DNA of 64,000 nucleotides from an uncultured delta proteobacterium (GCA_963733195.1 CAVTCR010000059.1:32001-96000); one strand, 5' to 3'; shown: positions 29,684 to 62,237, counted from the first letter of the stretch. The notes: generated by a model from the sequence alone, not told the origin. Numbers and translations: made by a program.

Positions 29684-29764
29684 CTAATGGTGCAATTCTT
29701 CGATCAGTGCCTTCGCCTCTTGCAGGTCTTTCGTATCAAACCCTTCCGTGAACCAGTTGTAGAT
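29684..29764 (-). pseudogene. Orphan 3' end of a cyclase-STAND-TPR gene
   Basis: Encodes [26 protein letters not shown]; 55/57 nt identical to 30377-30433. Confidence 0.88.
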
Positions 29765-29818
29765 AGGGACAACGTGTTACGTGCCGCGTGCCTTAAGGTT
29801 ACTACAGGCGCGCGAGGC

Positions 29819-30061
29819 TCATCGGTGCGAAGCTTCCAGGATGGTCACCCCTACCAAATTCTTCCCCTTGTAATCGAAAATGATCCCATCCTCTCCCATT
29901 TCGCTGTGCGTTGAGTTCACCTCGTCAACGAAATGGACGTACAGCACATCGGCCTCCTCATCATAATCCAACCACATCCGACGCTTTGGCAGTTGTACGA
30001 GGTGGGAAACAGCTTTAAGCAGATGTCCCAGACTTTTCTTTGCTAGCGCTTCTTTGGCCAT
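29819..30061 (-). CDS. DUF2283-family protein (putative antitoxin)
   Basis: DYDEEADVLYVHF...DGIIFDY...VGVTILEAS. Confidence 0.85.
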   Translation of the reverse strand: MAKEALAKKSLGHLLKAVSHLVQLPKRRMWLDYDEEADVLYVHFVDEVNSTHSEMGEDGIIFDYKGKNLVGVTILEASHR

Positions 30062-30349
30062 ACGATTGTTCTTTTGTTCACCTTACGGGCGATGAAGGCG
30101 GTAATGATGAATCGCGTCAGTTCGACTCACTTCTCGATAGACCACATGGAGATATTCTTGTTTCGCAAGAGTCAGGACGGCAACGGAAGCTCCAGCGTAT
30201 CCTCGCAGAATCCAGGTCGGACGTTCGACGGTATCGAGTACGCTTTCATAGTAGGGTTCCATATAGGGTTTGATTCGCTGACAATATGCTCCCATCTCTC
30301 TGGTGTGAGACGAATATGGTACGCCATTGACCGAGTATACGACATCCAC
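30043..30349 (-). CDS. Putative RelE-fold-like toxin partner of DUF2283 (frameshifted)
   Basis: Reassembled: SVNGVPIRLTPERWEHIV...VLDTVERP...YLHVVYREVS...FIITAF...IVWPKKR*; overlaps the DUF2283 start. Confidence 0.65.
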
Positions 30350-30352
30350 ACC

Positions 30353-57966: not shown

Positions 57967-58039
57967 TTACAGAGAGAGCCGTCCTCCAAGCCGTCAGAAA
58001 AGCTGCCGCTCTGCTCAACCTTTTCTCTCACGTCTCAGT

Positions 58040-58638
58040 TTCGTCTGTGAGCACCACTGGCTCATATCCATTTCAACGTCAGCAAATGGTTCAGCTCGCA
58101 CTAGCTCTGCATCGACCGAAAGGCATTCCACGTTGACCCACCGCCCACCGTCGACGCCGCTCATACGCTTCTAAGGTGCGGGCAATAGGATCAACCAACC
58201 ATAGAAGACCAACGCCTTCACGAGCGTAGATAGGCTTCTTCCGTACTCGATCAATACGAGCGGTCTGTGAAGAAAGGAGCTTCACATACCCAATCCTGGA
58301 GACTGTAACGTTCTTCAGCCATATCCAGGAACGTCGGAAGAATCGGCCTCCGTGCTTCGTCGTCACCCGCAAGGGCTGCCACTTCCTCTCCACTTCCTCT
58401 CGGATCGGCATCACTAAGAGAGGACCGGCCACCCAGTTGTGGAGGTCGGCTACCAGAGACGAGGTTCGTATCAAACGGGCCGATATAATGGCAATGGCCT
58501 CATCATATATTGCATTCGCGCTCTCTACCTTCAGGGGACGCGGAGGTAAGTAAAGAACATCGCCATCCACGAATCTCGGCACAAGTTATCAGCGGACTTG
58601 ACGGAACCTAAAGGTACGATACGGACTGCTGCGTTCAT
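58040..58638 (-). CDS. Uma2/DUF820 PD-(D/E)xK endonuclease, heavily frameshifted or degraded
   Basis: VDGDVLY..PRP, DRVRKKPIYAREGV..LWLVDPIARTLE, VRAEPF; GGAGG RBS and ATG at 58638. Confidence 0.75.
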
Positions 58639-58727
58639 GACACCTCCAATTCTCCTTTTCAATCCTCAATTGCTCACTGACTCAAAAAGTCCGACCCATT
58701 TGGACACCAGACTCTAGACTCGTAGTT

Positions 58728-61700
58728 CTAGATTGTCGAGCAGCTCTTTTGCCTCTTGCAAATCCTTCGTATCAAACCCCTCGGTGAACCAGTTGTATAC
58801 GTCCGACAACAGCTTGTGAGCTTCGGCTGTCTTGCCTTGGCTCTGCCAAAGGCGAGCGAGACTGGTTGCCGCACGCAGTTCCCAAGACTTAGCTTGCTGC
58901 TTCTGGGCGATTTCGATGGCTTTGAGAAAACACTCTTCGGCTTCTGACTTCCGCCTTCGACTCTGGACTGCGCTACCTGACTTTGGACTCTGAACCTTGA
59001 ACCTTGAACCGTTGGAGCGTCAGTTCGCCTTTCAGCCGATACAGCTCCGCCTCCCACCAACGCTCTCCGTTTTTGTTCACTATAGCTAGCGCCTCAGCCA
59101 GTACAGATAAGCCCTTCTTCTATCTGCCCTACTTTCCCATATGCTTCGGCCAATAGGGCAAGACTATGTGGCCTTTGAAGCTCTACCCCCATAGTTTGCC
59201 AAGCAGTTATTCCCTGACGTATCTGTACATTCCCTTCTCTCCCTGACCTTGCTCGGCCAGTGCCCAACCCCGTATGATAGTTCCCATCGCTAAGACGGAC
59301 GGAAATCCCTGTTCGGTCGCTGAGTGAATGCTTGCTTCTGCACGTTCTAGGGCCAATTGTGCCTCTCGGCGGTGATCATGGAGCTCAGAGGAAACAAGCA
59401 AAGCCCAGGCTTGGCTGTAGGAATCAGGAAACTCTTGGGCTAGGGTGAGTGCTTCGGACATTCTCTTCAGGGCTTGGTCTGGATAGCCAAGAAACCATAA
59501 AGCCCAGGCCATAAAGGAGAGACAATGCATCTTAGGTTCCTGCAGAGTGAGGAAGGAATGAGAGCTAAGTTGCTGGGAATCATAGAGGGCAATGCTCTGC
59601 TCCAGGTGCGCTCGGGCAGAAGCAAACTTCCCAAGCCAGAACAAAGACATCCCTAACGTACGATAGGCGTCGAGGAGAAAAACGGGATCTCCTACACTCT
59701 GCGCCAGACGCAGCCGCTGCTCCGCTAGCTCATGCGCTGTCTGTAATTCTCCCCGCATTCCATAAAATGACATCAATCCCCCCAGCACTGGGAAGAGCTG
59801 AGGAGTCTCTCCCAGCTGCTGGCACAGCTCCAGCGCCCGTTGTAAACTTTTTCTACTTCCGGGAAATAACCCTTGATCGCGATCAGGGGAGTACCCAAGG
59901 TGATCTGCATCTGTAGTGTAAGTTCTTGCTGGGCACGTTCAGGAGTATCCGGTAGAGTTTTAAGCACTTCCAGCCCTTTGGTGAGATGGCTGATCGCTTC
60001 CACATAGGCCGAGCGTTGAACGGCTCTCTGCCCCGCCTGCTGCCAATACGGAATCGCCTGCTCAATCAGATCCTGCCTCGGTGTAGTGATGCGCCAGAAG
60101 TTCTGGCTGCGTTTCCTTCGTGTCTGGGAAATCGGTCTTCCAGCACCTGGGCGATCTGCTGGTGATACTGTTGTCGGGTGCTCTTGAGCAGTGATTGATA
60201 CGCCGTGTCTTGAATCAGCGCGTGCTTGAAGAAATACCGTGCCTGTTCGCCAATACCGCGCTGATACAGAATCTCGGCTTCGACCAATTTCTCCAAGGCG
60301 GCATGTAAGTCGGTCTCACTCAGAGGTGTCACGGCTTGTAAGAGGTCATACGAGAACTCCCGTCCTAATGTCGCGCCTAGTTGCGCGACTTGTCGTGCGG
60401 AAGACAAGACGGTCCAACCGCGCCAGTAAGGCTTCCTGCAACGTTGCAGGGATTGCTAGTTGGAGAGGAGGGTGAGGTGACTCCCAGACCCCTGGACTCC
60501 CTAGACGCAACAGACTCCATGACATTTTTAGTCAACTCCTCGACAAACAACGGCACTCCGTCCGTTTTGATACGAATCTGCTCGATGACCTCAGTCGGCA
60601 ACGTTTTTCCTTCCGTTACTTTCTCAATCATCGCCTCGACTTGCTTCTTCCCCAGCCGATTGAGCACCAGGTGTGAGATGTGTGAACGGGGCTTCCACGA
60701 CGGCGTGAACTCAGGGCGAAAGGTCAGCACTAGCAGGAGTTTGGTGGTCGGAATCTGGTCGATCAGCAGCGCAAGGAACTCTAACGATGAGGGGTCTGCC
60801 CAGTGCAGATCTTCCCACACTGATACTGTCGCTTGCCGTTCGGCTTGGGCAACCAACAATTGCACCAGCGCTTGCAGCGTACGTTCTTTCTGCTTCTGCG
60901 GTGTTAGGTTCAGTGGCGCATATTGTGCCGGTGTCGGTAATGACAGCAGCGCAGTGAATAGCGGTAATGACTCCTGCATGCCATACAAAGCCAAAGCCCG
61001 GTTCGAGCTTGGCAACGCTTTCTTCTTCTCGGCTCTTGTCGAGTCAAGAGCAACGTTCGCTGCAAAACGTCAATCAGCGGATATAACGCACTGTGTTGAT
61101 GATAGGACGAACAGCGGGCTTCAAAGAGTAATGAACCTTCAGCCGTGACATGCTCTCGTCAGCGTGTACGCCAGCCGTGATTTGCCAATCCCTGGCTCGC
61201 CTGACAGCAAGACGACTTGCCCCCGTCCTTCTTTGGCTTGCTCCCAGCGGTCGATCAGTAACCCAACTTCTTGTTCTCGTCCGATTAACGGTGTCAGGGT
61301 CGTCTTGCTTTCCAACTGGCTGCCACTCTGTCGTTCACTTTGCACGTGATAGACCGCGATAGGCGTATCGATGCCTTTGAGCAGATGTGAACCGAACGGC
61401 TGACACTCGAAGTGTCTTTCGACGAGCCGTCGCGTGGCTGCGCTAATGATCACCGTGTTGGGCTCGGCTAAGCCTTGCAGCCGTGCTGCAATGTTCGGCG
61501 TCTCGCCTAAGGCCAGTTGTTCCGTGCGGCCACTTGTGCCGATGTCACCAATCACCACCAGGCCGGTATGGATACCAATGCGGACTTGGAGAGGTCTGTG
61601 TGGGACAGCGGCCCCTCACCCTGTCCCTCTCCCACAAGGGGAGAGGGAACCTGTTTTGCGATTGCGGCGGTTATTTCCAATCCTGTCCGCACTGCTCTTC

Positions 61701-62237
61701 GCGCATCATCTTCATGCGCAGTGGGGTAGCCAAAGTAGACCAGCAACCCATCACCCAGATACTGCGCCAGATAGCCCTCATGCCGCTGGATAACCTCAGC
61801 GCAAGTTTGCTGGTACTGTTGCACGACGGCCCGGTAGTCCTCGGGGTCAAGTTGTGCTGACAGTGCTGTCGAGCCCACCAGATCACAGAACATCACGGTC
61901 AGCTGCCGCCGCTCAGCGGCTGGGTGTTGGGGGTTAGGGGTTAGGGGCTGGTTTTCCTGACTTTGGACCTTGGACTTTGGATCTTGGACTTGTTTTGACT
62001 CTGGACTGTCCTCGCCGTTTCTCCATTTATCCGTTTCGCCTTGATCCCTTTCCCTGTCCAAACAAGCACCTCACCATTTTCGTCAGCAGCTATCCGTTCG
62101 GCTTTGATGAGTTCGCCCTTGATGTCCTCCACATACGCATCATCTAGGTCGAAGCGGCGTTTGAGTGCCCCATAAGACAGCCGTCCACGTTGGCGTAAGA
62201 GTTCCCGAATCTGATCTAACATCTCATCGAACGACAT
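58728..62237 (-). CDS. wHTH-like N-domain - class III cyclase - STAND ATPase - TPR protein, copy 3 (several indels)
   Basis: [68 protein letters not shown]; conserved [11 protein letters not shown] end. Confidence 0.9.

Follow-up and report, generated by a model that had tools for sequence, protein, structure and literature searches.

At Rhs/CdiA loci, a full gene is followed by one or more small genes and then by a 5′-truncated, same-strand copy of the conserved end (an orphan end), with recombination taking place in the conserved part, and in chromosomal integrons the cassette arrays are stabilized by toxin–antitoxin (TA) cassettes. On the side of nucleotide signaling, the Rv0386-type cyclase–ATPase proteins of mycobacteria are presumably among the closest known systems to the genes considered here. 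Work on Photorhabdus (PMC13617665) describes TA islets that lack mobile elements and are proposed to spread through homologous recombination in their flanking regions. Here, we analyzed a 64,000-nucleotide stretch of one contig (C59; GCA_963733195.1, CAVTCR010000059.1:32001-96000; hereafter "the window") from an uncultured delta proteobacterium, a metagenome-assembled genome (MAG; G000) with a 6.95 Mb assembly. Between positions 29,684 and 62,237, the window holds three copies and two short 3′ stubs of a gene family combining a class III cyclase, a STAND NTPase, and TPR repeats. An earlier note on this DNA had proposed that the conserved 3′ end of these genes anchors toxin and nuclease cassettes that recombination shuffles among paralogs, giving an integrase-free cassette system and possibly a diversified signaling or defense platform.

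With some reserve, we favor another account, in which this is a fast-turnover paralog family whose scars of recombination, deletion, and duplication coincide with TA islets, probably without any dedicated cassette system. The genomes compared with the MAG were G002 (same genus), G010 (another genus), and G001, G003, G005, G008, G011, and G013.

A large gene family with a conserved protein tail

In a six-frame protein-motif scan, the 18-letter tail motif of the family occurs five times in the window, always on the minus strand (29705-29761, 30377-30433, 49993-50049, 54505-54561, and 58741-58797), and a 36-nt DNA pattern of the same block matched three times where none was expected from 100 shuffles, which confirms the five minus-strand blocks first reported. 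When the window copies were delimited by tblastn with one intact paralog as query, this paralog aligned nearly end to end over 30362-33640, 49975-53567, and 58729-62237, and its homology to the two stubs was limited to 29693-29764 and 54490-54588. The proposed set of three full genes and two stubs therefore holds by homology but not as open frames, all three copies being split over two or three frames with stops. Copy 1 (30353..33640, minus strand) comprises an N-terminal small domain, a class III cyclase, AAA_16, TPR, and the conserved tail, and its aligned segments lie in frames -1 and -2 with stops and at least two frame switches. Copy 2 (49966..53567, minus strand) carries Guanylate_cyc, AAA_16, and TPR_12 in four frame pieces, and copy 3 (58728..62237, minus strand), recognized by tblastn, has at least four frame switches. 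Stub 1 (29684..29764, minus strand) corresponds to the last ~25 codons and the stop of a family gene, has no homology upstream, and sits 84 bp upstream of mch; stub 2 (54484..54597, minus strand) corresponds to the last ~36 codons and begins directly after the terminator of a MoaD-like gene remnant.

Profile matches in copy 2 include AAA_16 (PF13191; E value 2.2e-25, 90.5 bits against a cut-off of 32.6) at 51596-52669, TPR_12 (E 3e-10, 40.6 bits against 30.1), and Guanylate_cyc (PF00211; E 7.9e-8, 32.5 bits against 21.9) in a fragment at 52889-53422, with the rest of the cyclase domain falling in another frame; TPR_MalT reached 34.3 bits, below its cut-off of 45. Intact members consist of an AAA_16-TPR body placed behind either a small N-terminal domain and a class III cyclase or an OmpR-like wHTH. 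Judged by these domain matches, the family is a STAND NTPase with a MalT-like TPR sensor and a predicted class III nucleotidyl cyclase. Mapping by tblastn with five intact members as queries yielded 227 loci in the MAG, totaling 524,369 bp or 7.5% of the assembly, among which 124 are at least 2.4 kb long, and the tail motif was counted 147 times genome-wide. A similar expansion was seen in G001, G002, G003, G005, G008, G010, and G011, where most matches fall in open frames of 1150-1250 amino acids (aa). About 7.5% of a genome thus lies in one signaling family, a very large investment in a single sensor type, with comparable copy numbers in several related genera of uncultured soil bacteria; among the matches listed in the literature on class III cyclase, STAND, TPR, and AAA proteins, we found no account of such an expansion.

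Two further features of the family regions were observed. In-frame stops of a single kind occur in some family matches (five TGA in G005:C411 and three TGA in G000:C18:87416-88996). Family regions at C3:972-8929 and C44:29496-34868, as well as at C48:26790 and C48:34044, are 92-96% identical along 2.5-3.5 kb. Two strain versions of one locus, binned together (contamination 4.49%), may underlie the C3/C44 pair, and the C48 pair is an inverted duplication.

We evaluated the conservation of the 3′ block from 146 copies, anchored at the W codon. The frequency of the commonest base was 0.91 at first, 0.95 at second, and 0.70 at third codon positions, conservation ended at the stop codon with no conserved DNA behind it, and stubs, truncated copies, and full copies deviated from the consensus alike, mainly at third positions. 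The last 100 aa also matched 174 plasmid records at 34-60% identity (tblastn), from Sinorhizobium, Rhizobium, Cupriavidus, Bradyrhizobium, Burkholderia, and others, in proteins annotated as cyclase, wHTH, or AAA proteins. Since the codon pattern is of the protein type and the same tail is found in plasmid genes of other genera, the block is an old, selected protein tail rather than a lineage-specific DNA site; it recurs because the protein needs it and not because it is a site of DNA recombination. The view of the conserved 3′ end as an exchange site is accordingly not supported at this point, as codon-type conservation that ends at the stop is not that of a DNA site.

Toxin–antitoxin genes behind family stops

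Next, we evaluated how often TA genes lie behind family genes. To that end, genomic matches per Pfam family were counted when located within 1.5 kb downstream of a family stop in the MAG (1.6 kb in G010 and G011), with random placement as the null, under which a 350-bp interval falls behind a family stop with a probability of 0.0286 (2.9%). In the MAG, this was the case for 9/26 PIN genes (P 2.6e-8), 3/15 PhdYeFM (P 0.008), 2/11 ParE (P 0.04), and 2/6 DUF2283 (P 0.011), while the GNAT control gave 0/22. The PIN result recurs in G010 (6/31, P 1.3e-5), so that TA genes are found behind family stops at about ten times chance in one genus and again in a second, and the suspected TA enrichment behind block genes is borne out. 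The parallel suggestion of nuclease enrichment is not: Uma2, nearly the sole nuclease-type gene tested here, gave 2/22 (P 0.13).

In 8 of 10 cases inspected, the TA gene starts 0-170 nt past the family stop. No further family gene lies downstream in 5/9 PIN cases, so the link is to the 3′ end. At C59:25344-25350, a family stop overlaps the start of an RHH-type antitoxin gene in an ATGA motif, followed by a PIN gene, an overlap that suggests translational coupling. The TA families vary by locus and include PIN with Phd-, RHH-, or UPF0175-like partners, DUF4258/DUF2283, and ParE. The movement and persistence of chromosomal TA islets that lack mobile elements can be addressed here by comparative genomics.

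Locus turnover between relatives and recombination between paralogs

Differences between genomes involve whole genes, or units made of a relic, a TA-like pair, and a gene, and not cassettes behind a fixed gene. At the copy 3 locus, G010 has DUF364, an intact ortholog of the family gene (open frame of 1174-1214 aa), and M20 in the same order. In G002, no family gene is present: DUF364 is followed by a heptamer-rich spacer and then by Uma2 and M20, and 418 bp stand where the MAG has about 4 kb. The genes behind copy 3 are therefore kept (M20 in G002 and G010, Uma2 in G002), and with these neighbors fixed it is the family gene itself that comes and goes. Fixed downstream neighbors across strains had been named by the earlier note as an outcome that would speak against cassette shuffling, and for copy 3 this is what was seen.

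The copy 2 region differs in a comparable manner. In G002, 105 bp separate the terminator of the MoaD-like gene from the ATG of an alpha/beta hydrolase gene, versus 4.7 kb in the MAG (54628 to 49932), and this 4.7-kb segment without counterpart in G002 consists of stub 2, the TA-like pair, and copy 2, with its left edge at the MoaD-like remnant. In G011, a family gene lies behind the MoaD-like gene. The MAG retains just the 3′ part of the MoaD-like gene and the terminator (54629-54842), unlike the complete gene of G002, and the glyoxalase–hydrolase interval of G002:C144 (L063 2412-6807) contains rhodanese, 4Fe-4S ferredoxin, and aldehyde:ferredoxin oxidoreductase (673 aa) genes along with the complete MoaD/ThiS-like gene; the DAO and glyoxalase genes of G002 are located elsewhere in that genome.

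Stub 1 lies less than 100 bp from a break of colinearity with G002. In G002 and G003, mch is followed by MBL and PduO genes, which in the MAG are inverted and 52 kb away. Relative to G002:C75 (L049), this corresponds to an inversion of about 53 kb (C59:61600 and 102106-114532), with one breakpoint between mch and stub 1 and the other beside the MBL-fold gene, where no family sequence was seen.

Recombination among paralogs, as the earlier note had supposed, is borne out by a mosaic copy on contig C68. Over its body, the upstream copy of a pair there most resembles one gene type (77.7% vs 68%); starting 218-233 nt ahead of its stop, and on across the spacer into the following gene, the match is to the C1, C22, C81, and C18 arrays. 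An all-against-all blastn of the regions behind the 147 family ends was also used to look for the same TA cassette behind several paralogs; it returned mainly the next tandem family copy and segmental duplications, and this candidate was dropped. Joints linking copies 2 and 3 to each other in metagenome contigs, with sides of 20-43 letters and 90% likeness, were not used.

Stubs, relics, and heptamer arrays

Family homology upstream of the 146 blocks with sufficient flanking sequence extends over at least 2.4 kb in 109, 200-2400 bp in 22, and less than 200 bp in 15. Among short AAA-TPR fragments, 28 extend to the C-terminus, another 5 stop no more than 300 aa short of it, and few are 5′ or internal. 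The shortest stubs lie 0.6-4.2 kb behind another same-strand family stop in 7/12 cases, with genes between, against a baseline of 23/133 among full copies (Fisher P 0.003); taking every truncated copy together, 9/28 do so (P 0.11). The inserts between gene and stub include TA-like ones (the DUF2283 pair of the window, a small pair on C71 without family match, and a PIN fragment with partner) and others (SDR and GST; SnoaL, acyltransferase, and MFS; an F420H2-dependent reductase; and Uma2, M20, DAO, and glyoxalase). The C71 small pair resembles DUF4258/DUF2283 by eye only. When each stub block was compared with that of the preceding gene, the identity was 0.986 for the C71 pair (rank 1/145) and 0.899 for the DUF2283 cassette of the window (rank 2/145), and the other five stub–partner pairs ranked 13th to 130th.

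Stubs are also found in relatives. Block matches in frames shorter than 200 aa number 16/43 in G011 and 13/16 in G013, and among 12 loci of relatives that were inspected, 4 are longer broken copies, with the rest holding 6 short relics (75-366 bp), 3 fusions of N-terminus to C-terminus, and 2 further fragments; short relics were verified in G010, G011, and G013. Given these short-frame matches and relics in other genomes, the stubs are not, on comparative grounds, an artifact of the MAG assembly. In these fusions, or mini-genes, the C-terminal module follows immediately on the N-terminal domain or on the first part of the cyclase; they lie at C62:272512-272954, C65:104496-105039, and C8:97513-98341 in the MAG and at L068 and L069 (G013) and L077 (G010). 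We also considered that stubs are kept as carriers of the promoter of a TA pair, an idea that was rejected: in a scan of 18 stubs, a TA-type gene with family support came immediately next in just two (DUF433 on C71 and DUF4258 on C84), and the remaining ones are followed by ordinary genes. By eye only, a stub on C9 is followed by a Phd-like ORF, and stub 2 of the window, outside the 18-stub scan, is followed by the TA-like pair.

Heptamer tandem arrays, located with Tandem Repeats Finder, encode in the window the linker that precedes the final C-terminal module in copy 2 (50237..50265, minus strand), and arrays of this kind also lie in copy 3 (58991-59010) and copy 1 (30570-30611) and in N-terminal linkers (33540-33636, 53343-53370, and 61926-61991); a further array (49955..49986, minus strand) spans the stop of copy 2 and encodes its variable tail (...SLESGV*). 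Genome-wide, an array lies 170-340 nt before the stop in 69/120 family copies versus 7/600 control gene ends, and arrays at the stop are equally common in both (14/120 and 69/600), for which reason the notion of a 3′ module bracketed by arrays on both sides was discarded. Relics that start at a linker array were likewise set aside, as this was clear in 1/5 relics and weak in one more. An array is present at the junction of 3/5 of the N-to-C mini-genes, so these may be internal deletions between two linker arrays, and the C68 mosaic junction falls at a module boundary. Heptamer arrays are thus plausible breakpoints for some events. They read as linkers with a 7-residue period, e.g., SKFKVQS-type runs in an intact copy on C5, and a change by one heptamer unit would move the frame by one base.

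Neighboring genes in the window

Neighboring open reading frames (ORFs) were labeled by Pfam, NCBIfam, and PADLOC profile searches, and the labels of the earlier note fared unevenly. The mch gene (mesaconyl-CoA hydratase/MaoC; 28542..29600, minus strand), a conserved core gene whose ortholog in G002 is 94% identical, matches PF19315 (E 7.9e-20), and its label stands. The alpha/beta hydrolase (49166..49931, minus strand), recognized by blastn to G002 and frameshifted in the window, could be confirmed through the intact ortholog of G002 (Hydrolase_4, 6e-16). Of the supposed toxin and DUF2283 pair, located between copy 1 and stub 1, only the DUF2283 ORF is supported (29819-30061, minus strand; PF10049, E 2.7e-12); the partner called a toxin (30083-30366, minus strand), which starts 8 nt past the copy 1 stop and whose frame is broken, has no family match in Pfam or NCBIfam. 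Directly upstream of copy 2, the pair described as PIN and antitoxin (53578..54431, minus strand) is TA-like, with a 164-aa ORF and a 139-aa RHH-like ORF. The PIN half of that label finds no support, as the 164-aa ORF (53937-54431) has no PIN match in Pfam or NCBIfam, its only match being to the PADLOC candidate family PDC-S70, and for the antitoxin half, the 139-aa partner scores 19.9 bits to RHH, just under the cut-off of 20.5.

Further along, the MoaD/ThiS-like gene remnant with its terminator hairpin (54629..54842, minus strand) was identified by comparison with G002. Pfam scans identified a glyoxalase (54826-55464, minus strand), a DAO oxidoreductase split by a frameshift at about 56337 (55543-56672, minus strand), and an M20 peptidase (56689-57966, plus strand) with orthologs in G002, G003, and G010. 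The Uma2 label holds in part: the family match is present (E 1.5e-7) and an ortholog exists in G002, but the gene (about 58091-58640, minus strand) is broken.

Broken frames and competing explanations

The broken frames of the window copies can be read as assembly error or as decay. As a control, we took a 400-kb portion of G002 and compared all 131 of its ORFs with ≥350 aa with the MAG, giving 84 non-family core orthologs (≥70% identity to G002, ≥0.9 coverage), among which 16 (19%) contain a frame switch in the MAG (18 switches in 129.5 kb), some in proteins 96% identical to G002. A proportion of 19% frame-broken core genes is not credible biology for a free-living bacterium, so most of the breaks in the window copies are probably consensus errors of the assembly. 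Within the family, 114 loci showed at least 285 frame switches versus 31 in-frame stops flanked by good alignment, indels exceeding nonsense changes about 9 to 1. A search of sequencing runs turned up none that was the source of the MAG, the best share being 0.09. In short, low-depth contigs of relatives from four small-share soil and sediment metagenome runs, one base is absent at 51746 and another at 53356 in copy 2, and removing these bases fuses frames (600 and 372 aa to 915 aa; 182 to 233 aa). The DAO, alpha/beta hydrolase, and Uma2 genes of the window, which are not family members, are frame-broken as well; the G002 ortholog of the hydrolase is an intact 253-aa ORF, and the DAO and Uma2 regions of G002 align. 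A possible error signature was dropped as a line of evidence, as the contexts of core-gene indels were mixed, with both additional and absent bases, and ambiguous at 80-90% identity, with no clear homopolymer bias. The contrary reading is that most family copies are true pseudogenes, the decaying remains of a burst of a selfish or once-useful family with the stubs as its oldest debris. It draws on the fact that only 14/124 long loci keep an ORF covering >0.9 of the locus, on the in-frame stops, and on two points that also weigh against consensus error: frame switches in the family (≥285 across 114 loci, each about 3.4 kb long) are roughly five times as frequent as in core genes, and broken or truncated copies also occur in G010, G011, and G013. 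A further point against consensus error is that indel differences at 60067 and 61626 restore no frame, so that only 2/4 junction differences do. Errors alone may thus not explain the rate, and with broken copies in relatives some true pseudogenes are therefore likely. As a general account, however, wholesale decay appears unlikely, considering the 19% of core genes that are likewise broken, the excess of indels over nonsense changes, the two frame-restoring variants in other data, the mostly intact copies of relatives, and the coding-type substitution pattern kept by stub sequences. Importantly, since the assembly breaks 19% of conserved core genes, almost all frame breaks of the window are open to doubt, and claims of pseudogenes or decay from this MAG need read support.

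Under the fast-turnover reading that we favor, copies in tandem arrays recombine into mosaics and are gained, lost, inverted, and internally deleted between related genomes, leaving 3′-terminal relics, i.e., the stubs, and mini-genes that join N-terminus to C-terminus. Type II TA modules collect directly behind family stops, some close enough for co-transcription, and these islets and other small genes may travel with a family gene or its 3′ part, either by duplication or by homologous recombination in which family sequence provides a portable flank of homology; one joint may sometimes be illegitimate and yield a displaced 3′ stub. Once in place, TA modules could persist through their addictive effect and by selecting against the deletions that direct-repeat arrays readily undergo. 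Several observations weigh against this reading. For no transfer event could donor and recipient both be identified, PIN enrichment is weak in G011 (2/32 within 1.6 kb, P 0.057), and no PIN gene was seen by eye downstream of a block among 35 in G013. Since the null is random placement, TA and family genes may merely share variable regions. The tail is the best-conserved part of the gene, so tiny relics of other parts would be missed, and biased detection accounts for part of the predominance of 3′ over 5′ fragments. Finally, 19/28 truncated copies lack a family copy in the 5 kb upstream of them, and most stubs can therefore not be explained by displacement.

The cassette proposal itself, a dedicated integrase-free exchange site at the 3′ end that shuffles TA and nuclease cassettes in a diversified defense or signaling platform, like an integron or Rhs/CdiA orphan ends, would account for the gene–cassette–stub layout of the shortest stubs, for the close block similarity at the two small-ORF cassettes, for the same layout with a PIN gene in G010 (C72) and G011 (C2), and for the PIN enrichment. 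It is nonetheless improbable: only the first two codon positions of the block are conserved, with no DNA conserved behind the stop, the other five stub–partner pairs rank far down, copy-to-stub inserts are metabolic as often as TA, the neighbors of copy 3 are fixed across genomes, Uma2 is not enriched, and no multi-cassette arrays were seen in the MAG. What survives of the cassette interpretation is the TA clustering and some stubs as displaced ends, and what does not is the dedicated exchange site. Another form of the idea would make the last ~75-residue module, set off by the heptamer linker, a portable homology present at more than 100 places, through which RecA-type recombination moves TA and other small genes between copies, by single crossover of a circle or by one homologous and one illegitimate joint that leaves a stub. 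We regard this form as doubtful; if it were true, the family would be an integrase-free chromosomal analog of integron cassettes or Rhs/CdiA orphan arrays, and TA pairs would shield the repeat-rich arrays from deletion. Alternatively, TA modules could cooperate with the STAND cyclases in one operon as effector or regulator, as in Pycsar. The tight spacing (ATGA overlap, 8-12 nt gaps with ribosome-binding sites), the resemblance of the cyclase domain to PycC models (E 9.6e-13 to 4.3e-15), and the PDC-S70 match upstream of copy 2 are consistent with such a link, but the TA families behind different copies are mutually unrelated, most copies have no TA gene behind them, the neighbors scanned include no cyclic-nucleotide-binding effector, and similarity to PycC is expected for any class III cyclase, which together make functional cooperation very unlikely. 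The defense platform envisaged for this locus likewise finds no defense-system signature beyond that generic similarity.

Comparison with known systems

The closest relatives in domain order are the cyclase/wHTH–AAA_16–TPR STAND proteins of Pseudomonadota, with which the MAG family has the conserved C-terminal tail in common. It differs from these in its >120 copies of full-length size, which make it 7.5% of the genome, in the heptamer-encoded linkers of 69/120 copies, and in the TA genes clustered behind its stops. To TIGR03903 (TOMM system kinase/cyclase fusion), the AAA-TPR half aligns at positions 758-1266 of 1267 (E 1.2e-86), but with 291.7 bits against an equivalog cut-off of 705.75 the relationship is confined to the C-terminal half, and no kinase domain was detected. 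The class III cyclase resembles the PycC of Pycsar and is here fused to a STAND NTPase and a TPR sensor, and where Pycsar places an effector with a cyclic-nucleotide-binding domain beside the cyclase, the scanned neighbors in the MAG include none.

Compared with integrons, no conserved DNA site bounds each cassette, given codon-position frequencies of 0.91/0.95/0.70 and nothing conserved downstream. Integron-like multi-cassette arrays are absent as well, the gene–insert–stub cases of the MAG being single, with one stub–PIN–stub arrangement in G011 C2. No integrase was found among the ORFs scanned beside blocks, in which no search was aimed at integrase genes. With Rhs/CdiA loci, the layout of some stubs of the MAG shares the order of gene, small gene, and truncated end. 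Unlike in those loci, the conserved part here, with 5-15 residues of tail, is itself the end of the protein, which leaves no variable toxic tip to be exchanged. TA pairs or ordinary enzymes occupy the space between gene and stub, and the majority of stubs are solitary. The Photorhabdus islets (PMC13617665) are likewise small TA loci without a mobile-element gene that are gained and lost between close genomes and are proposed to persist by addiction. In contrast to these, the flank here is a member of a family of more than 100 copies and not a core gene, and such a multi-copy flank would, in principle, offer many alternative landing places.

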